Assembly: GCA_015233195.1 (NCBI GenBank)
Contig: JADFYE010000014.1
Span: 1-60,432 of the forward strand
Origin: Candidatus Omnitrophota bacterium
GTDB taxonomy: Bacteria; Omnitrophota; Gorgyraeia; Zapsychrales; Zapsychraceae
DNA: 60,432 nucleotides
Direction of reading: 5' to 3'
Part shown: one piece after another, positions 24,249-39,500 of the stretch
Layout of the letters: every line of letters begins with the position of its first letter
Numbering within the stretch: the stretch's first letter is position 1
Notes under the pieces: model-generated
The model's database searches: none
What the model saw: only the letters and a program-made list of their open reading frames with translations
What the model was told of the DNA's origin: nothing
Program-made: the position numbers and the translations under genes

Positions 24249-24287
24249 TTCCCTCTCCAGCCTCTGGGGAGAGGGTGGGGTGAGGGG
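24249..24287 (+). repeat. C/G-rich REP-like palindrome, singlet
   Basis: TTCCCTCTCCAGCCTCTGGGGAGAGGGTGGGGTGAGGGG; the first 28 nt are identical to 36981-37008. Confidence 0.85.
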
Positions 24288-24294
24288 AGGGAAT

Positions 24295-26717: not shown

Positions 26718-26849
26718 TCCCCTCTCCAACCTCCGGGGAGAGGGTAGGGTGAGGGGAATAGTTTTTGAAATAAAATTTTTATATTGTTTTGTCTGTCTTT
26801 TAAAAATAACCCCTCATCCTAACCTTCTCCCCAGAGGCGGGAGAAGGGA
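26718..26849. mobile_element. REPIN/MITE-like doublet of the C/G-rich palindrome
   Basis: Copy at 26718-26756 and inverted copy at 26810-26849 around an AT-rich spacer of ~53 nt; same arrangement as the DUF559 flanks. Confidence 0.7.
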
Positions 26850-26885: not shown

Positions 26886-27590
26886 ATGCCAAAAACAAAA
26901 TCCCATTCTAATGTTGTTATAAATTTTTTAAGTGAAGCACAGGCTGCTTTGATAATTATCGTGCTCAATTGCATGATGTTTTGGTATGTTTATCATTCGG
27001 CTCTTCCTAAACCTCCAGTTCAAGATTTAATTTTATATCCCGGAAATTTATTGCGGGGTTATTTGTGGACGATACTTACTTCAGGATTCATGCACCGCGA
27101 TCTGATGCATTTATTTTTTAATATGCTCGGGATTTTAGTTTTTGGTCGGATAGTGGAAAGACAGTTAGGTGTGGCAAAAACTTTTTATGTATATTTTGGG
27201 GCGCTTTTTATATCCATGCTTTGCGCGACCATGGCGTATATGATGTTAGGCAGGAACGTGGCGCTTATTGGCGCTTCCGGCGCTCTGATGGGGTTAATAT
27301 CAGCCGCAATGTTGCTTGACCCATTTACTATTACTTATGAAATGATAATTCCTTTGCCAGTAATGTTAAAAGCCTGGCTGTTTTTTTACGCGGATTTTAG
27401 AGGGGTTTTAAGTCGGGTTAACGACGGAGTAAGCCATTTCGCGCATATATTTGGATTTTTATCAATTTCAGTTTTGATGTATTGGCTTTCCGTAAAAGAA
27501 CGCAAAAAAATGACAGTAGGATTAATCATTAACATAGCATCTTTCTTCGCGTTATTTTTGATTAGGAAATGGATATACAGTTATCTATGA
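26886..27590 (+). CDS. Rhomboid family intramembrane serine protease
   Basis: FMH, HLFFNM, GASG and HFAHIFG motifs; multi-TM. Confidence 0.92.
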   Translation: MPKTKSHSNVVINFLSEAQAALIIIVLNCMMFWYVYHSALPKPPVQDLILYPGNLLRGYLWTILTSGFMHRDLMHLFFNMLGILVFGRIVERQLGVAKTFYVYFGALFISMLCATMAYMMLGRNVALIGASGALMGLISAAMLLDPFTITYEMIIPLPVMLKAWLFFYADFRGVLSRVNDGVSHFAHIFGFLSISVLMYWLSVKERKKMTVGLIINIASFFALFLIRKWIYSYL

Positions 27591-30674: not shown

Positions 30675-33600
30675 ATGCTCAAACGTCTTATCAGTTCATT
30701 TGTTTTAACTGCATTTTTATTCACCAACCTTTTTTCCGGAACAGGTTATGCTCAAGTAGTATTACCAATGCCCGGTACAATGTTGACTCCGACTGCGGTG
30801 TATAATCCTGCAATGATCCGAGGGGTGAATATTGACCCAAACAATCCGCTTAAGTTTGATTTTATTCTGGATCGCGGCGATAAAGTATTATCCGATTCTG
30901 ACTTTAAACTAGAATCAAGTAAACTGGTTAAATATTTCCTCGCTGCTTTAACTGTCCCGCAAAAAGAAATGTGGGTCAACCTTTCTCCGAACGAGCCAGA
31001 CCGTATTATTCCAGAAAATTTTGGCAAGACTGAAATGGGTCGCGATGTTTTAGCACAGGATTATTTATTGAAACAGCTGACTTCTTCTTTAATGTATCCC
31101 GAAAATGAATTAGGCAAAAAATTCTGGTCAAAAATTTATGAAAGAGCAAAAAAAGAATTAGGCACAACTGACATCCCGACTGATACCTATAATAAAGTTT
31201 GGATTGTCCCGCAAGTCGCAAAGATTTACGAACATTCCAAAGGCGCGTTTATTGTATCGACTCATCTGAAGGTGCTTTTGGAAGAGGATTATTTTGCAAA
31301 GCAACAAGCACAAATTTCCAAAAGCATCCCGAGAACGCAGGACGAGGGATTACATGACGCAAAGTTAAAAGTGCAATTAATGCATCAAATTATTATCCCA
31401 GAAATTGAACGGGAAGTTAATGAGGGGGAGATTTTTGCTAATCTTCGTCAGATTTATAGTTCTATGGTCCTTGCTCTGTGGTATAAACAAGCTTTAAAAA
31501 ATTCTGCCTTAGGTCAGGCATTTGTAGACCAAAAGAAGACTTCAGGACTTGAAACTGGCGATGTAAAAGCTAACCAAAAAATTTATGACCAATATTTAGC
31601 CGCGTTTAAAAAAGGCGTTTATGATTACGTTAAAGAAGAGTATGAACCTTCAGAACAAAAAATCATCAGTCGCAAATATTTTTCAGGTGGAGTTTCCGCA
31701 GATAGAGCTCAAATTAATACAATAAGAAAATCCGATGCTGCAGTATTAAATGCAGTTGATAAACTTGGCTCCCGCGTGAAAATCGCAAGCGTTACAGTTG
31801 GCGACGAAGCAATGCTTTCCGGAACAAATGCGATGGAATTTCTTTTTGCGAGTTACGCGGATATTAAAGGTGTAATGAGAGGTTTGGAAGAGTGGAAAGC
31901 TAAGGATCGGGATGAGGCAGAACGGTTAGTGGCAATTTTTGCTAAGCTGATGCCTAAGTTAGATGAATTCGAGAGCGGAGAATATCAATTATCGTCGGAT
32001 GAACAACAATTGTTGAATAAATTTGGTGAAGAGTTTATAGGGTCTAAAGATGGTATTTTGAGTTTTTTGAAAAATTTAAAAAAATCTCAGATCGCGGTCG
32101 TTCCTCCTGGAATTGTTAAAAATGTTCATAGAGACAAGAAAGTTTTTATTACAGGCGGTGGCGGATATATAGGAAAGAACGTTGCTTATGAATTATTAAA
32201 AGCAGGTTCGGATGTTGTGCTTTATGATGTATCGCCGAGAAATGTGGAAGCATTAATTAAGGAATTTGGAGAAAAACGCGTAGAAGTGGTTAGACAGGAT
32301 ATGCGGGATCTTCACATGCTGAAAAGGGCAATGCTGGGATGCGATTCTGTGGTGCATTTAGGCGCTTACATTGCCGCAGGTGATTCTACAAAACGACCGG
32401 CTCAATATTACGATGACAATGTGTTAGCAACATTGAACTTGTTAAAAACCATGAAAGAACTGGGTATTAGTAATTTGTCATTTGCTTCCAGCGCGGGAGT
32501 TTATGATGGAATTAATTTTAATAAAAATGAAGTTTTAGACGAAACTATTCATGCTAATCCGCAAAATCCTTACGGAGAGACCAAACTCATGATGGAGCGC
32601 TTGATGAAAGCGTATGGCGAGGATATTAATTGGTTTGCTGTCAGATTTTTTAATGTGGCAGGCGCAGTGTCGTTTAGAGGACGGGATGGTAAAGAATATG
32701 TTTTGGGAGAAGATCATGATGGCGCAGAAACCCATGTTATCGCCCGAGCAATTCAATCATTAAAAGAAAATAAAATTGCATTTAAAAAATTCGGTATTGA
32801 TTATAACACTCCGGATGGAACCAATGTTCGGGATTATATTCATGTAGGCGATTTAGCAAAAGCCATTGTCCGAACTTTGGCTGTACAGTATGTTAATGCT
32901 GAAAAGAAAATGAAGACCGCGCAGATTGTTAATTTAGGAACAGGATCTGGCACATCGGTTAATGAAATTACAGAGGCGATTCTTCAAGAACATAAAGCCG
33001 CAACTGGCGAAGATTTAAAATTTAAAGATGCTCCTCGTCGTCCAGGAGATCCGGATGCTTTAAAAGCCAGCGGGCTCAATGCTTTTGTGGAATTGGGTTT
33101 TGTTCCAACCCGAGGGGTTAAAGAAATTGTTAGGAGTGCTTATAAATATCATGTAACCCATCCGATTAATATTGATAATATCAAGCAGCCAGAGGCGAAA
33201 GATCAAACCAGCGAATCAAAATATTTAGAAACAATCCGTTTATCAATTATGCAAAATAAACAAATACCTTTAGACGTTCGTTTTGAGATTTTGTATCGGT
33301 TATTTATAGATATGGTTCGCGAACCAGCAGTTAATTATCGTGTTGGGAAAGGAATGGATCCGTTTAATGACAAGCAAAAGGAATTAATCGAAAAAATTAT
33401 TCAGGCTTCAACAGTAATATTTTCAACTCCAAATGTTTCTATAAGGGAGCAAGTTGCGAATAGCATGATATTAAAAAAATTATTTATTGATTTATATTTG
33501 GATCTTAAAGAAAGTGCTAATACATTTGAAAAGTTGGATTTTACAAGAGCAATGGATAGTTTTTATTCAATGGCTTATTTAGGAGAAGATTTATTAGATA

Positions 33601-36476
33601 GTAAAAATGACGAAGCCATGATCTCTAAGCGTAAGACAGATGAAGCAGTATGGAAAGAGTGGAAAGACGTTGATGCGACTATAGTAAAGAATTTAAGAGA
33701 TTGGCTGCCGCGCGAAACATTTTTAAATTTAATGGCAGAGAAAACAAAAAATCAAGAGACATGGTGGTCCGTATATTTTAATAACTTGGGTGAGGTTATC
33801 GGATGGGAGTATCGTCGCGGTAAAGCTGTAGAATTACAGTTTAACGGCACAAGATCTGAATACGTGTTACGCGGTGATAATGATTTTGATGGGGTGATAG
33901 CAACCAGCATTAAACTTTACGACCAAAGTATTTGTTTAGCTATGGGGCCTCGTATTTCAAATAAGATAACTCCGCAGGAAAAGGAAAATGGGGCCGCATG
34001 GGTCCATGGTGATGGTTGGAAAATGCCATTCTTGGGTCAGCATGGAATTAATATGAAAACTTTCTGGCGAAATAACTGGCGATCTTCTAATTTTGCTATA
34101 GATGTAGGAGAGAAGAAATATGGCAATATTATTGGGGCTGATGGTTTAAAAAAATGGGTGCCAATAGGTTTATTTTCGCAAGCGGGTGAGCTTTCAGTTG
34201 TATTGGTCGAAAGAGGCAGTCAGATTGTAGAAGGAAAGATACCAGTTGAGCGGTATTCTTTAAAAGGTATACGATTTGGACGCGATGAACAGTTTGATTT
34301 TACGACGAGGACGATTTTAACGCAAAAAAGCGTCGGTTTGTCAGAATCAGTTTTTGGTGAATTTTATTCAGAGGAAATGGAGATCGATAATGTTTCTAAG
34401 ACCGGAGAAAAAATAATTATCCCAGTTAAAATAAACAATAAAGAGTATTCTTTAAAAATATTTAGGGATAAAGATGGCAGGTTTTTTGTTTACGAAAGTT
34501 ACTGGCTTTTTGATCTTTTTGGTGATGATAAAACAGAATTTGCAGAATTTTTTAAATTATTGGCATCGTTAGTACCTGCAAACAGCATATTAGAAAATGT
34601 TATTGACGGGATTAAAAAACAAATCGTCAAAGATCCGTTGTCATTAGTTAAAATAAATGGCTTAGGGGAAATCGATCCGTATCCAAATCCAAATTCTGAC
34701 AAGGCGATGATTATTTCTGAACCGGATAAAATTGGGATAGCGGATAAAGGTGTTAAAGAATATACCAGAGAATATCCTGTGACAGTCATTGGGTTGCGCG
34801 ACGACGTGGTGGCGTTGCGTTTAGGTTCAGACGCGCCTTTGTTCATAGATGAAAAGGATCAAATACTAGGATTTTTAGAAAAGGATGTCACACGTTTTAT
34901 AGAAAATGAAATACCCGGAAATCATCCGATTGAGGAAGTGGATAAAGTTGTTAAACAAATTAGAACATATATGGGCGTGCCAAAACTCACAGTTGTAAAG
35001 CGTGAAGCGAGTCAGTCTTCTGTTAAAGGTTTAAAAGTTACGGTTAACGTGACTTGGGATCGGGCTATGCAGTCAGCAGCGCTTCAAATTGAAGGTCGTA
35101 TATTTTATAAAGATTCTTATGGGTATGGACAAGTGTTTGCATTTATTAAAATTGACGGTCAACTTAAATATATGTTGCAATTACTTCAACATCAAGACGG
35201 TGGAACTGTATGGGGCGCATATTTGGTGCCTGAAGAGAATTTTAAAAGTAATGGAAGTATCGGAACAGAATATGCAAAATTAAGTGCTTCTGCTTTAAGT
35301 ATTAGACCCATAATTTATTTTCCTCATGATCTATTTGTTTCGGATTATACAAAAGGGAAATTAGCAAAACCAAACGATAAATATCCTTGGTTGGAAGATT
35401 TGGTTCGTCAGATTTTAACTAGGGTTTTTTGGCAAACTCAAAATGACCCTGGTATAAATTTGCAAAAAGTTGCTTGGGCGTTTAATTTGCCAGTGGCGTT
35501 AGGTGATTTGTCTTTTAATGGAATAATGAGGAAACAAGTTTCGGTAGAGGTTTCAGACGATGAAGGTTTTGTGAGGAGTAATGTGAATTTTTATGAAGGT
35601 GATGTTGGTGATATAAAAATAACGAAAGTTGATAATGGATATCGGGTATATTATCAAACCAGAGCAAGCAAAGATTGGTATTTGATTGGCGCAATTGATG
35701 AAAATTTGGTAGGAGATGAAAATTTTAATGCGTGTACTAAATCAAAAATGTGGCTAACTGAAGCAGTAAAACAAACTATTGAGCAGGCACAAAAACTTGG
35801 CATGACCATTACCAAAGATGCTGCAATGATGAAAGCATCACAACCGCCGAATCAGTTTAATGGACCATACGTCAGAGAGGTGGCAGGACAAAAGCAAGTA
35901 GTGGCTTTTGTTAATATTTATGGCTTAAATAATTATATGTTGCAGTTGGTAGCTGAAAATAATGGTTGGCATGTTTTAATGGTTTCACAAGATTATTATG
36001 TTCGGTCTATGGGAGAAAGTCTGGGCACAATAGCTTCGAGAATGGAAATAGAGTCGAGAAATGATCGTATAAAACAAAAATATTTTCCTGCATTATGTAT
36101 AGTTGGGCTTAAAGGGTTTTATATTAATGGTGAGCTTTCATCACACGACAGTATTAAAACAGACTTTCCGTGGTTAGAACAGTTAGTTAGTGAAGTTTTA
36201 GCAAAACTTCCGAAAGATAAAGCCGCATTAGTAAAAGACGGTGGTATAGACTTGAATAATACTAATCTCGACGTGAATAAAGTTGAAGGTGGTTTTAAAA
36301 TTAATGCGGATGCTGCAATGATCCAGCAAATTCAAAATGCTACTGGTTTAGTGCCGGTTAGGATCGATATTTTTACAGTCGGGAATTTACGATTATTGCT
36401 GGGTTTGTCGGATACAACAACGCCGTCAGTTGCGTCGGACGAATCGTCGCCGATGGATAGGAAAGTTAATAGTTAA
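30675..36476 (+). CDS. Large secreted modular protein 1: signal peptide, conserved N-domain, DxAM-delimited cargos (including a GalE-like epimerase), GGIDL tail
   Basis: Start at ATG 30675 from SD spacing and the paralog alignment. The N-terminal ~370 aa are homologous to the next ORF. GalE motifs GGGGYIG, YGETK, RFFNVAGA, DGTNVRDYIHV and RRPGDP are present. Confidence 0.88.
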   Translation: MLKRLISSFVLTAFLFTNLFSGTGYAQVVLPMPGTMLTPTAVYNPAMIRGVNIDPNNPLKFDFILDRGDKVLSDSDFKLESSKLVKYFLAALTVPQKEMWVNLSPNEPDRIIPENFGKTEMGRDVLAQDYLLKQLTSSLMYPENELGKKFWSKIYERAKKELGTTDIPTDTYNKVWIVPQVAKIYEHSKGAFIVSTHLKVLLEEDYFAKQQAQISKSIPRTQDEGLHDAKLKVQLMHQIIIPEIEREVNEGEIFANLRQIYSSMVLALWYKQALKNSALGQAFVDQKKTSGLETGDVKANQKIYDQYLAAFKKGVYDYVKEEYEPSEQKIISRKYFSGGVSADRAQINTIRKSDAAVLNAVDKLGSRVKIASVTVGDEAMLSGTNAMEFLFASYADIKGVMRGLEEWKAKDRDEAERLVAIFAKLMPKLDEFESGEYQLSSDEQQLLNKFGEEFIGSKDGILSFLKNLKKSQIAVVPPGIVKNVHRDKKVFITGGGGYIGKNVAYELLKAGSDVVLYDVSPRNVEALIKEFGEKRVEVVRQDMRDLHMLKRAMLGCDSVVHLGAYIAAGDSTKRPAQYYDDNVLATLNLLKTMKELGISNLSFASSAGVYDGINFNKNEVLDETIHANPQNPYGETKLMMERLMKAYGEDINWFAVRFFNVAGAVSFRGRDGKEYVLGEDHDGAETHVIARAIQSLKENKIAFKKFGIDYNTPDGTNVRDYIHVGDLAKAIVRTLAVQYVNAEKKMKTAQIVNLGTGSGTSVNEITEAILQEHKAATGEDLKFKDAPRRPGDPDALKASGLNAFVELGFVPTRGVKEIVRSAYKYHVTHPINIDNIKQPEAKDQTSESKYLETIRLSIMQNKQIPLDVRFEILYRLFIDMVREPAVNYRVGKGMDPFNDKQKELIEKIIQASTVIFSTPNVSIREQVANSMILKKLFIDLYLDLKESANTFEKLDFTRAMDSFYSMAYLGEDLLDSKNDEAMISKRKTDEAVWKEWKDVDATIVKNLRDWLPRETFLNLMAEKTKNQETWWSVYFNNLGEVIGWEYRRGKAVELQFNGTRSEYVLRGDNDFDGVIATSIKLYDQSICLAMGPRISNKITPQEKENGAAWVHGDGWKMPFLGQHGINMKTFWRNNWRSSNFAIDVGEKKYGNIIGADGLKKWVPIGLFSQAGELSVVLVERGSQIVEGKIPVERYSLKGIRFGRDEQFDFTTRTILTQKSVGLSESVFGEFYSEEMEIDNVSKTGEKIIIPVKINNKEYSLKIFRDKDGRFFVYESYWLFDLFGDDKTEFAEFFKLLASLVPANSILENVIDGIKKQIVKDPLSLVKINGLGEIDPYPNPNSDKAMIISEPDKIGIADKGVKEYTREYPVTVIGLRDDVVALRLGSDAPLFIDEKDQILGFLEKDVTRFIENEIPGNHPIEEVDKVVKQIRTYMGVPKLTVVKREASQSSVKGLKVTVNVTWDRAMQSAALQIEGRIFYKDSYGYGQVFAFIKIDGQLKYMLQLLQHQDGGTVWGAYLVPEENFKSNGSIGTEYAKLSASALSIRPIIYFPHDLFVSDYTKGKLAKPNDKYPWLEDLVRQILTRVFWQTQNDPGINLQKVAWAFNLPVALGDLSFNGIMRKQVSVEVSDDEGFVRSNVNFYEGDVGDIKITKVDNGYRVYYQTRASKDWYLIGAIDENLVGDENFNACTKSKMWLTEAVKQTIEQAQKLGMTITKDAAMMKASQPPNQFNGPYVREVAGQKQVVAFVNIYGLNNYMLQLVAENNGWHVLMVSQDYYVRSMGESLGTIASRMEIESRNDRIKQKYFPALCIVGLKGFYINGELSSHDSIKTDFPWLEQLVSEVLAKLPKDKAALVKDGGIDLNNTNLDVNKVEGGFKINADAAMIQQIQNATGLVPVRIDIFTVGNLRLLLGLSDTTTPSVASDESSPMDRKVNS

Positions 36477-36501
36477 TCGATTTATAAGAATCAGGATATA
36501 T

Positions 36502-39500
36502 ATGTTTAAACGCCTTATCAATTTAATCTTTGTGACGGCGTTTTTAATCAATAATCTATTAGCCGGCACAGGATACGCGCAAATGCGTTTATCGGCTTTG
36601 GCTCCAATGATTAACTCTGTTCCCGTGCCTCTGATCAAAGGCTTGCGTGTTGACCCCCAGCAGCCATTTAAGTTCGAATTTGTAGTCGATCCTAATGGTT
36701 CTACGAATAAAAATGATATCCAGCTTCTAATCAAATATTTTCTTGCTGGTTTAACTATTCCTGAAAAAGATTTATGGGTGAATTTGTCTCCCAAAGAACC
36801 GGACCGAATCATCCCTGAGGCGTTTTCTCAGACGGATATGGGAAAAGGTTTGCTTGAACAGGATTTCATATTAAAACAAATGACCAGCGCCATGATCCTG
36901 CCTAATAATAAATTGGGCAAGGAATTTTGGGAAAAAATTTATGAGAAAGCATATGAAACGAGAGGTAAAGAGGGAAAGGATTCCCTCTCCAGCCTCTGGG
37001 GAGAGGGTAAGGGTGAGGGGATTTTAAATAAAGTATGGATTATCCCCGATAAAGCAGTTGTATACGAAGGAAATAATACTGCGTATGTTGTAGAAGCAAA
37101 GTTAAAAGTGATGACGGAAGAAGATTATTTAGCTGGTGGTAGCCCCGTAAAATCGCTACGCGATCACGGGGTTTTAAATTATCAGACATTTTTAAAAAAT
37201 ATAATTATCCCCAAAATCGAAGCTGAAGTCAACGAAGGTCCTCAATTCGCCCAGCTCCGTCAGATCTATCACTCACTCATCCTTGCCATGTGGTTTAAAA
37301 AGAATTTGCAAAATCATATTATCAATAAAGGCTATTCTGACCGCAATAAGGTCGACGGTATTAATAATAATGATCCGCAAGCAAAACAAAAAATTTATGA
37401 CGCGTATTTAAAAGCGTTTACCGACGGCGCAAACGCGCTCATTAAAGAAGACTACGATCCTAATACTCAACAGATCGTACCGCGTAAATACATTTCCGGC
37501 GGGCTGGATTACACGCATTTTGATTCTGCAATGACGGTTACACAGGATAAAGCTATGGTTCCTGCAGAGCAGGGCTTAGTGTTGGTCAAGTCTGGCATAT
37601 TATCATCAGACAGCAAAATAGAAGAAACAGATGCGGCTATGAAAGTCCAAACAATTTTGGATCAGCAGAAAAAAGCTGGTTTGTATGTTTGGTCTGATGA
37701 TATTTCGCGGAAAGGTGCCCCGAACGGAGAGATAAATGATTTTGATCCATTCTTTGTGAAAAAATATGATTTTATTGATTTCATCATGACTCCTTTATCG
37801 AATAAAGAAGATATTTTGAAACGTCAAACTGCAGTTAAAGTATTTTTGGGACTTCCTGAAGAAAAACGTAGAAAATTAAGTCGAACGATCAATGATACAC
37901 TCAGGTGGTTTGAAGCGTACCAATTTTTTGGTCAATATACGTCGGATGAAGATGAAGTTTTTTCGCAGGATGAAAGGATCCCGCTACTTCTTCAGCGGAA
38001 GAAAAAAATCGGTAAAGATTATTTACAGAAAATAGCAGAGTATGAAAAAAAGGAAGGGTCTGATTGGTATTTGCGTCAAATTAATTATGGGGACCTTGAA
38101 CGGGATGCGCATGCTATGTTTAAAAGAATATTGACCCTTGATTCCGCGTTTGAGCGATTTTTTGATGAAATCCGTGAAATAGGTGATCCTTTGTTAACAC
38201 AATTGGCAGAAGATATATCAGCCATATTGAAAAAAACAAAAATGCCGTCTATTGAGGAGATTCTTGAAATTGCAAAGCGCGGGGATGAAAAGGCGCTCGA
38301 TAAAATTTTCAATAAGGTTCAGGATTCCGAAGAAATATTCGGGCAAATGATGATGTTCATTAATTTTGCGGACATGGTCAAAGAGATGCATTTTCAAGAA
38401 GCCACATATGATGATGAAAAACCTGCTGGGTATAAGAATGGTTGGATGTTTACAGATTCCCGGGATAAACAGGTTGTAAATAATTCCCCTGAAGATATTC
38501 CGGTTGCGGTTTATACAGGAAGCCAAATGGCTGGGAAATCGTATCAATTAAAACAGAATTTTTTTATCCAGCTTCTTGGGCAGTCAATGGGTTTTGTTCC
38601 AGCGGAGAACGCGAATATCCGTATTTATCAGAGTCTTGCGTTTTTAGATCGTCCGAGGACGCAGGCGCTCTATGACTTAAGTGCGTTTCAGGTAGAAATA
38701 AGAAATTTACTACCTGTGGACCGGAATAAAAAACACCCTTTGTTATTATTTATGGATGAGGGATATTCTACGACGTCACCGAATGAGCAGACCAGATTTT
38801 TGATAGGGACGCAAAAATTTGTTGAATCTTTTCAAGGGAGAATGCGTGTTGCCACGCATAATGAAGAATATATCCAGTGGGCAGAGATACAGCCTTTAAC
38901 ACGAATATATCACCCAGAGGTGATATTAAAGCCTGATGGAAAACCGGATTACAAAAGAAAGATTCTGCCTGGATCAGGAGATTCTTTGGCTATAACGGTT
39001 GCAAGATCTGAAGGTTTACAAAAAGAGATATTAAGCAGGGTCGAACGGTACCATGAACAAAATGGACAACTTGAACCAGTTGCGGATATTAAAAAAACAA
39101 TAAATCCTCTCACTCAATATTCAGAAGAAGAACGCGCTATATTAAAACAACGATCAGAGAGTTTTACCGGATTTTTACCTTTGGATAATGAACTGGTCAT
39201 TGATGATCAAGGACACGGAGGGAAAAATACTTTACGTTGGAAAGATCCGAAGCATAGTTCTCGAGAATCATCATTGTCCAGGTTTTTTGATCTGGACGAA
39301 AAAAGAGTAGCAGCTGCGTATCCGCCTAACGGTATTTTTTATCCATATTCCAAAGATAAGCATTGGTCTGATGGACAGCTTCAAGAAGGGATGAGTACTA
39401 TTATAAGCCGGATGTTGAAGATGGGCGCAACGAGTGATCCTAAAGAATTATTAGAGCGCCAGAAAATGTTTGAGTTGTTATCATCCAGTAAAATAGACAA

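Follow-up and report, generated by a model that had tools for sequence, protein, structure and literature searches.

A strict D-x-A-M peptide motif marks module boundaries in a modular protein family of Omnitrophota and is a putative processing site

Two adjoining long open reading frames (ORFs) on the forward strand of a 60,432-nt stretch of DNA from a Candidatus Omnitrophota bacterium (assembly GCA_015233195.1, contig JADFYE010000014.1, positions 1 to 60,432, hereafter the window) contain nine copies of the four-residue motif D-x-A-M (DxAM). We find that this motif marks the boundaries between modules in a large protein family to which both ORFs, named P0001 and P0002, belong. Judging from its sequence statistics, it behaves as a short linear motif at the peptide level, and it is a putative site of proteolytic processing. 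The Omnitrophota are very small bacteria that have not been cultured and may live as predators or parasites, and their long multi-enzyme proteins are unexplained. The window is one contig (C5) of a genome, G000, which totals 1.98 Mb in 50 contigs and is 77.6% complete.

The original prediction, made from the letters of the window, counted six DxAM sites in P0001 and three in P0002 and guessed that fewer than one would arise by chance. All nine are found at exactly the coordinates that it gave (Table 1), and the composition of the two proteins leads one to expect 0.22 sites per protein, i.e., 0.44 for the 9 observed (Poisson P ~1e-9). The remaining 39 ORFs of the window (at least 150 aa) have one site in all. 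The comparison with the proteome, named beforehand as a check, gave the same answer: the 37 family ORFs of G000 have 130 sites for 6.0 expected, and the 1628 non-family ORFs have 53 for 54.7 expected, so that the enrichment is confined to the family. These counts rule out chance and amino acid composition as the source of the motif. D.AM is the top enriched gapped word of the family cargo (25-fold), the next words being part of the conserved tail of the N-terminal domain. Across 140 instances information is confined to D, A, and M, nothing is conserved upstream, and the surrounding preferences are mild (L/I/V/M at +4, V/S/A at +5, D/E at +6). The three residues are not replaceable: the single-substitution classes X.AM, D.XM, and D.AX are at background in the family, with the sole exception of D.AQ (19 for 8.6 expected). 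This qualifies what had been claimed of four variants, said to occupy positions equivalent to those of the motif. All four are present at their coordinates and three are placed as claimed, since the first DxAM of the paralogues is the counterpart of DRAQ (31701) in the alignment, and DKAA (36216) and DKAQ (41695) align at a D-x-A-x position just ahead of the C-terminal GGIDL sequence, where the last residue is M, A, Q, V, or I in G000. Such equivalence is not established for DAAV (31734), and the variant classes are not enriched as such.

The original prediction favoured a signal in the peptide over a DNA recombination site, on the grounds that the codons vary synonymously. This holds: Asp is encoded by both GAT and GAC and Ala by all four GCN codons, near background frequencies. 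The corresponding DNA word, GAYNNNGCNATG, is found 130 times in frame 0, with a single copy each in frame 1 and in antisense and none in frame 2, and no base is conserved upstream of the motif codons. Occurrence in frame only and free choice of codons therefore indicate that DxAM acts at the level of the peptide.

Residues 1-345 of P0001 match the N-termini of 37 ORFs of G000 (at least 100 aa; phmmer), and a six-frame search of the genome with the N-terminal domain (N-domain) gives 41 matches. Genomes of the same taxonomic family have 5 to 41 such matches, and the expansions are partly lineage-specific. No member of the family was detected in the genomes G016, G018, and G020. The members, 800 to 5300 aa long, share a common build: an N-terminal hydrophobic segment, an N-domain of ~320 aa, variable cargo, and a C-terminal module (C-module) opening with GGIDL. 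An array of unrelated domains is thus held between conserved termini, as seen in the N-domain of the 37 paralogues, the C-module, and the diversity of cargo Pfams. A Kyte-Doolittle scan places a hydrophobic segment at the N-terminus of 33 of the 37 paralogues, internal ones being rare (11 of 37), and the alignment of the paralogues shows that the segment has a K/R-rich start and an A-Q end. Most members close with GGIDL, followed by [FI]-x-x-D-x-A-M-φ-x-x-φ-Q, G-φ-x-P-V-I-x-x-I, and L-x-x-F-L-G. Three further ORFs that are rich in DxAM and lie at the ends of contigs also have the C-module, and are fragments of family members. Many members also have an acidic tail ending in a D-[RK]-K-like patch. 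The same genome encodes an ORF of 23,460 aa (contig C47, 24183-94565), which lies outside the N-domain family and is not enriched in DxAM (4 for 2.55 expected).

DxAM had been predicted to cluster at the end of the N-domain and between modules, and never to fall inside the GalE or MutS folds. In the window the latter is true of the Pfam envelopes of GalE (residues 490-835 of P0001) and MutS_V (694-875 of P0002). The mapping of motifs onto domain boundaries across homologues, also proposed in advance, extends it to 87 motifs in 12 Pfam-scanned proteins: none lies within a Pfam envelope for 20.1 expected from the domain coverage, and none of 20000 simulations gave as few. In 31 of the 37 paralogues the first motif is at most 60 aa from the end of the N-domain, and at this junction with the cargo it is often doubled or tripled. 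The median spacing between consecutive motifs is 217 aa, the size of a domain, and 11 of 30 members have a strict DxAM no more than 30 aa ahead of their C-terminal GGID.

Individual proteins illustrate this arrangement. In the paralogue L001 (3372 aa), a hexokinase (825-1240) is bracketed by motifs at 811 and 1252, with position 14 of the Hexokinase_1 profile 11 residues past the Met of the motif, and an aldose epimerase ending at 2883 is followed by a motif at 2887. The homologue P0068 has a PEPCK (454-1072) between motifs at 425 and 1093 and an isocitrate lyase that starts 21 aa past the motif at 2255; ICL, TAL, and ADK domains of homologues begin 18 to 24 aa past a DxAM. Besides P0001 itself we found only two homologues with a fused GalE, one of which (P0123) has this domain at 1269-1674 between motifs at 1083 and 1757. 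Within P0001, residues 1464-1716 and 1717-1880 are internal repeats (117 aa aligned at 30% identity, E 2.5e-10) whose alignment begins 16 and 18 residues past the D of the respective motifs, i.e., in register with them. An analysis of where alignments end within G000 gave mostly matches of the C-module and three or four examples in cargo, which makes it anecdotal. Taken together, these observations show that DxAM marks module boundaries.

The family extends well beyond this genome, and the motif does not extend with it everywhere. A search with the N-domain returned 3095 homologues of 1064 to 3387 aa (E<=1e-3), and the named ones are from Candidatus Omnitrophica or Omnitrophota. In the 120 best homologues DxAM occurs 284 times for 24.9 expected, with 46 of the 120 having none. 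The DxAM-poor homologues are enriched in SSP (157 for 14.8 expected), with the consensus [SA]-S-S-P-[VIL]. SSP is placed shortly past the N-domain, a few residues ahead of GGID, and between enzymes; for example, the UDPGP, PGI, PGM, and PGK domains of P0104 are each bracketed by it. Its serines are drawn from both codon families, TCN and AGY. When the 34 homologues lacking both DxAM and SSP were pooled, no third common motif was found. Searches by genome revealed two more motifs that the pooled set had missed. They covered 60 family ORFs from 17 relatives (1 to 8 ORFs each, from genomes that are themselves related), and the motif type of each genome was assigned from the motif counts themselves. 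By this assignment DxAM is the motif of G001 (24 observed, 1.0 expected), G003 (24, 1.7), G006 (12, 0.5), G008 (28, 1.3), G010 (40, 1.5), G011 (15, 0.7), and G012 (18, 1.4), and SSP that of G004 (10, 0.5), G005 (10, 0.6), and G007 (18, 1.1). Genome G009 has D-x-A-[AV]-[LMIV] (64, 3.8) and G013 has D-H-x-M-[AS]-[ED] (8, 0.3). In G009 the motif in the helix of the C-module is altered in the same manner as the linker motif, e.g., FDPAAL.

Proteins of the DxAM and SSP types are interspersed on the phylogenetic tree of the N-domain, the motif type following the genome rather than the tree. In a tree of 190 tips, 16 changes between the two types are needed (with shuffled labels, 30.6 on average and never fewer than 23). 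No column of the N-domain alignment separates the types, the highest mutual information between a column and the type being 0.27 bit. On this ground we dropped the idea that the N-domain itself reads the linker motif. Because the types are interspersed and no N-domain column co-varies with them, many paralogues in a genome must have changed their motif together, with some caution owed to the relatedness of the genomes, the small number of ORFs sampled, and the assignment of types from the counts. Such a joint change is what one would expect of a single shared reader, encoded elsewhere and co-evolving with the motif, and it points to one.

The N-domain of these proteins is novel. It has 42 invariant columns (alignment A1), no match in Pfam or NCBIfam, and no Foldseek match in the PDB at E<=1e-3 for its AlphaFold2 model, which is of moderate quality (pLDDT 60.9). 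We considered whether it could be a known fold or a protease and rejected this, since nothing matched in the PDB and the Atlas gave only hypothetical clusters of Omnitrophota. The C-module of P0001 consists of GGIDL, then an F/I-x-x-DAAM helix, G-L-x-P-V, and LLLGL. It has 73 homologues, each matched at or near its C-terminal end, and the D and A of its DAAM are at least 90% conserved (alignment A2). Its model is not compact (pTM 0.22), and the only helix spans residues 45-53 of 98 aa, starting right past the D of DAAM. When the N-domain (30-350) and the C-module (15-80) were modelled together, a complex was predicted with ipSAE values of 0.84, 0.84, and 0.81; the best of three controls reached 0.00, the runs share at least 69% of their contacts, and the partner has a pLDDT of at least 60. 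In the calibration of the tool the mark was reached by 58 of 80 solved complexes and by 2 of 110 mismatched pairs; as our own alignments were used, these counts apply here only approximately. The predicted interface has GGIDL touching the invariant W102, V103, Q130, D131, L134, W178, and I179 of the N-domain. This model supports, and falls short of showing, a docking of the N-domain on the C-module, either in cis or head-to-tail in trans. Two subtypes of C-module coexist within the same genomes of the family (relatives L021-L060): type A has an F-x-x-DPAM-L-x-x-LQN helix and type B reads 'GGIDLNPALLDLQIKRDGNGVPLPLPQQPI..M.I.GF.PVIINITP'.

The cargo Pfams of the homologues are mostly enzymes and regulators of cytoplasmic type, often several per ORF. 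They include PGI, PGM, PGK, enolase, PEPCK, ICL, malate synthase, and acyl-CoA dehydrogenase, as well as response-regulator receivers, helix-turn-helix domains, radical SAM domains, and others. Some of these have standalone counterparts in G000, namely a PGK (413 aa, 534 bits) and a PGI-like ORF (455 aa). The fused PGKs of relatives score only 127 to 200 bits and have the look of additional, divergent copies. In G000, a genome that is incomplete, hexokinase, aldose epimerase, PGM-like, and UDPGP-like domains were detected only inside family ORFs. Because enzymes of cytoplasmic type, dependent on cofactors, sit behind a signal-like N-terminus, their products may operate outside the cytoplasm of the producer, which hints at work in the cytoplasm of another cell. 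A host-dependent lifestyle of Omnitrophota has been proposed, in the accessible text of PMC10066038, and a destination of the cargo in another cell would fit it.

These patterns suggest the following mechanism. DxAM would be the form taken in this lineage by a short peptide motif that punctuates the modular polyproteins of an Omnitrophota-wide family. We infer that a factor with its gene elsewhere in the genome reads it, that this trans-acting reader is a protease, and that the freed enzymes work beyond the cytoplasm of the cell that makes them, e.g., in a host or a prey. An endopeptidase cutting at or next to the motif, so that the modules are released as separate proteins, is to us the likeliest explanation, with about an even chance of being right. 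It is favoured because the motif is strict, independent of context, and found at the edges of complete units, and because the sites at the first junction are redundant and the motif has been replaced across whole genomes, in a co-ordinated way, by unrelated ones. For DxAM the scissile bond would lie between Ala and Met, giving products that begin with Met. The data are consistent with this cut, which the original prediction had put forward, since in the hexokinase the Met falls about where the free enzyme would begin.

Several observations weigh against such processing. Some boundaries have no motif, as between malate synthase and aldolase in P0068 or between ADK and PGK in P0031, ~1350 aa of the cargo of P0002 are devoid of any, and 6 of the 37 members have none near the end of the N-domain. 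No clear motif was found in G002, G014, G015, G017, and G019, from which 1 to 5 ORFs each were available. The two main motif types are more clustered on the tree than shuffling of the labels would give, so that shared descent explains part of the pattern. The flanks of the motif are only slightly more hydrophilic than background and are thus not obvious disordered linkers, a signature that we had considered and dropped given this weak shift. The copy of DxAM in the C-module itself may be structural, because in the model it starts a helix whose M47 and I51 lie within the interface with the N-domain. Finally, P0001 and P0002 match no peptidase family (Pfam and NCBIfam, E<=0.01), and hence contain no cysteine protease domain of the C80 type, and the neighbouring genes are of housekeeping type, the 10 neighbour ORFs holding no protease save a rhomboid in a genome that was not systematically screened.

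The motif could alternatively serve as a docking or recognition signal that is never cut: each copy would form a short Asp-capped helix and place its Met in a pocket of a shared partner, thereby organising export or assembly. The partner might be a chaperone, a translocation machine handling the chain module by module, or the N-domain of another copy. We see this as the main rival and as possible, if on balance unlikely. The helix of the C-module that starts right past the D of DAAM, the predicted place of its M47 and I51 in the interface with the N-domain at the ipSAE values given above, and the mostly hydrophobic residue at +4 are all in its favour, and a genome-specific replacement fits any co-evolving reader, be it a protease or not. 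Yet the N-domain is an unlikely reader of the linker motifs when none of its columns co-varies with them, and [SA]SSP[VIL] occupies the same places with a Pro, a poor helix former. The delimited modules moreover match complete natural enzymes, which fits release better, tethering being still compatible. Asp is also common as a helix N-cap, and a linker without any reader, such as a helix cap or a cap at the end of a domain, could have spread by duplication and shuffling of modules. The C-module helix beginning past the D agrees with this, as do expansions that are partly lineage-specific. But a cap would tolerate S, T, or N instead of D and other hydrophobic residues instead of M, and X.AM and D.AX are at background. 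Unrelated cargo domains share the motif without similarity in its flanks, and chemically different motifs are found at the same boundaries in different genomes, with N-domain clades spanning these genomes. We regard such a passive linker as improbable.

A signal in DNA or RNA is the least credible of these options and we give it hardly any weight. An internal translation start at this ATG would agree with a Met codon that never varies and is placed roughly at the expected beginning of a free enzyme, and a recombination junction could serve the shuffling of cassettes. Against both, the third codon positions and the whole codon of x are free and follow background use, and there are no purine-rich or otherwise conserved bases upstream. 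Neither E.AM (with GAR codons) nor N.AM is enriched, and therefore it is the amino acid Asp itself that is selected. The SSP of other genomes contains no ATG and draws its serines from both codon families. The restriction to one reading frame, the freedom of the codons, and the lack of an upstream signal thus led us to rule out a recombination word or a ribosome-binding arrangement.

Table 1. Features of P0001 and P0002 in the window (positions in nt of the window; residues counted in the ORF)
Feature	Position	Strand	Basis or remark
P0001, 1935 aa	30669..36476	+	ORF list, translation; N-domain phmmer search against the ORFs of the genome
Conserved N-domain of P0001, aa ~30-345	30756..31703	+	Alignment A1
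DRAQ, aa 345, variant at the position of the paralogues' first DxAM	31701..31712	+	Alignment
DEAM, aa 379, first strict motif of P0001, 34 aa past the N-domain end	31803..31814	+	
GalE-like SDR epimerase cargo, aa 490-835	32136..33173	+	Pfam PF01370, E 5e-40
DEAM, aa 981, end of the GalE segment	33609..33620	+	
DKAM, aa 1344	34698..34709	+	
DRAM, aa 1464, where internal repeat unit 1 starts	35058..35069	+	
DAAM, aa 1717, where internal repeat unit 2 starts	35817..35828	+	
DKAA, aa 1850, D-x-A-x position right before GGIDL	36216..36227	+	
C-module of P0001, aa ~1858-1917	36240..36419	+	Homologue search, alignment A2
DAAM, aa 1881, inside the C-module of P0001	36309..36320	+	
P0002, second family member	36502..41901	+	ORF listed from TTG 36430
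DSAM, immediately past the N-domain end of P0002	37522..37533	+	
DKAM, P0002	37546..37557	+	
DAAM, P0002	37630..37641	+	
First MutS_V-type ATPase domain of P0002, ORF aa 694-875	38509..39054	+	Walker A GSQMAGKS
Second MutS-like ATPase region of P0002, aa ~1512-1739	40963..41646	+	~29% identical to the first
DKAQ, D-x-A-x position of P0002 ahead of GGIDL	41695..41706	+	
C-module of P0002, divergent form without internal DxAM	41722..41898	+	

P0001 follows the common build, with a hydrophobic N-terminus, the N-domain, five cargo segments delimited by DxAM, and the C-module. Its epimerase domain matches PF01370 well above the Pfam cut-off, falls below that of the GalE equivalog TIGR01179 (251.5 bits for a cut-off of 262.3), and has intact motifs, GGGGYIG at residue 496 and YGETK at residue 635; in GalE-type epimerases GxxGxxG is the NAD site and YxxxK the catalytic motif. 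The cargo that follows (residues 981-1840) had zero homologues among 1.84 billion representatives, the C-module alone being matched. This leaves a stretch of ~860 aa without detectable homologue (window 33609-36215), which includes the internal duplication. For P0002, the alignment of paralogues favours a start at ATG 36502 ('MFKRLINL...') over the listed TTG, from which the ORF would overlap the end of P0001 by 47 nt. P0002 does not have the complete set of MutS domains (mismatch-binding, connector, core, and ATPase): Pfam identifies only MutS_V there, and the NCBIfam models mutS1, mutS2, and KamC score far under their cut-offs. The first ~380 and last ~90 residues of both proteins have zero matches in Pfam and NCBIfam. 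The neighbouring genes are ordinary: 6PGD, G6PD, rhomboid, DinB, PLD-like, EEP nuclease, PilZ, and glycogen phosphorylase. The rhomboid-family intramembrane protease gene (26886-27590) is 3 kb upstream of P0001, and we found no link between it and the motif.

Two kinds of repeats occur within genes of the family. A G-rich palindrome of ~40 nt has ~50 blastn-short matches on more than 20 contigs of G000. One copy is inside the N-domain of P0002 (~36983-37021) and others are intergenic (24249-24288, 26720-26757, and 26810-26844). In family genes the repeat lies in frame within loops of the N-domain and reads, depending on the frame, 'SSLWGEGKGEG', 'GVGKGRVGG', 'PSQ.QGQDD', or 'KGERLKVK'. It resembles in this the Rickettsia palindromic elements, which are in-frame palindromic mini-elements. 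A second, hairpin-like in-frame repeat (~37126-37173, residues ~233-248 of P0002, 'SPVKSLRDHGV') has 10 matches in the genome including the copy in the window, several of them in other family genes.

Several known systems share part of this organisation, the closest in function being MARTX toxins and the polyproteins of viruses and phages with their short protease motifs. MARTX toxins contain a cysteine protease domain of their own as well as glycine-rich repeat regions, and are cut after Leu. Like the family described here, they are long proteins of secreted type in which an array of unrelated effectors or enzymes is framed by conserved termini, with short sites at the joints that are processing sites in MARTX. 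They differ in that P0001 and P0002 lack a peptidase domain and end in a novel N-domain and the GGIDL module, that the family cargo includes ordinary metabolic enzymes, and that there are dozens of paralogues per genome with a motif varying between genomes. Viral polyproteins and the substrates of phage prohead proteases have cleavage motifs of 3 to 5 residues, specific to the lineage and its protease. There, too, many units per ORF are separated by a strict, short, lineage-specific motif, and the placement at boundaries is also found here; the present family differs in being chromosomal and bacterial, with no embedded protease found and a cleavage that is putative. A variable passenger between an N-terminal export signal and a C-terminal sorting domain is typical of proteins with a type IX secretion system C-terminal domain (T9SS CTD), LPXTG, or PEP-CTERM. 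The family has the same outline of a variable passenger between an N-terminal signal-like segment and a conserved C-terminal module. In contrast to sorting domains, its C-module is not compact in the model and is predicted to dock on the protein's own N-domain, and P0001 and P0002 had no hidden Markov model match to T9SS CTD, PEP-CTERM, LPXTG, or GlyGly-CTERM in Pfam and NCBIfam.

A further parallel is within the phylum. In its accessible text, the preprint of West-Roberts et al. 2023 (bioRxiv 10.1101/2023.11.21.568195) proposes post-translational cleavage for giant multi-enzyme proteins of Omnitrophota, the 'Archaeovorins', and states that the cleavage points are unknown, which blocked structure prediction and functional parsing. 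A 2026 preprint (10.64898/2026.06.07.730766) describes, as far as its accessible part goes, 'multi-enzyme metabolic clusters' in Omnitrophota. The family analysed here is from the same phylum by the names of its homologues and likewise combines glycolytic and sugar-nucleotide enzymes in one putatively signal-bearing ORF. The giant proteins are of at least 10,000 aa and are described in these accessible texts with no cleavage motif named, whereas the present family spans 800-5300 aa and is defined by its N-domain and C-module. Leaving aside the supplements of three Omnitrophota papers, which our literature search did not cover, we found no paper naming DxAM, the GGIDL module, or the family.

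The boundary motif provides concrete candidate cut sites for a family of more than 3000 members in public data and gives a simple rule for splitting its ORFs into modules. If cleavage is confirmed, bacteria would be shown to process polyproteins at the scale of genomes, the recognition code drifting from one lineage to another. A broader picture, which we offer tentatively, is that ultra-small Omnitrophota make dozens of enzyme strings whose ends would be docked, as a loop in cis or a chain in trans, and that a protease co-evolving with a genome-specific code (DxAM, SSPV, DxAAφ, or DHxM) would free Met-initiated enzymes from them. If true, docked strings and a protease that reads such a code would be a cellular counterpart of the processing of viral polyproteins, and may allow entire metabolic pathways to be delivered into the cell of a host or a prey.

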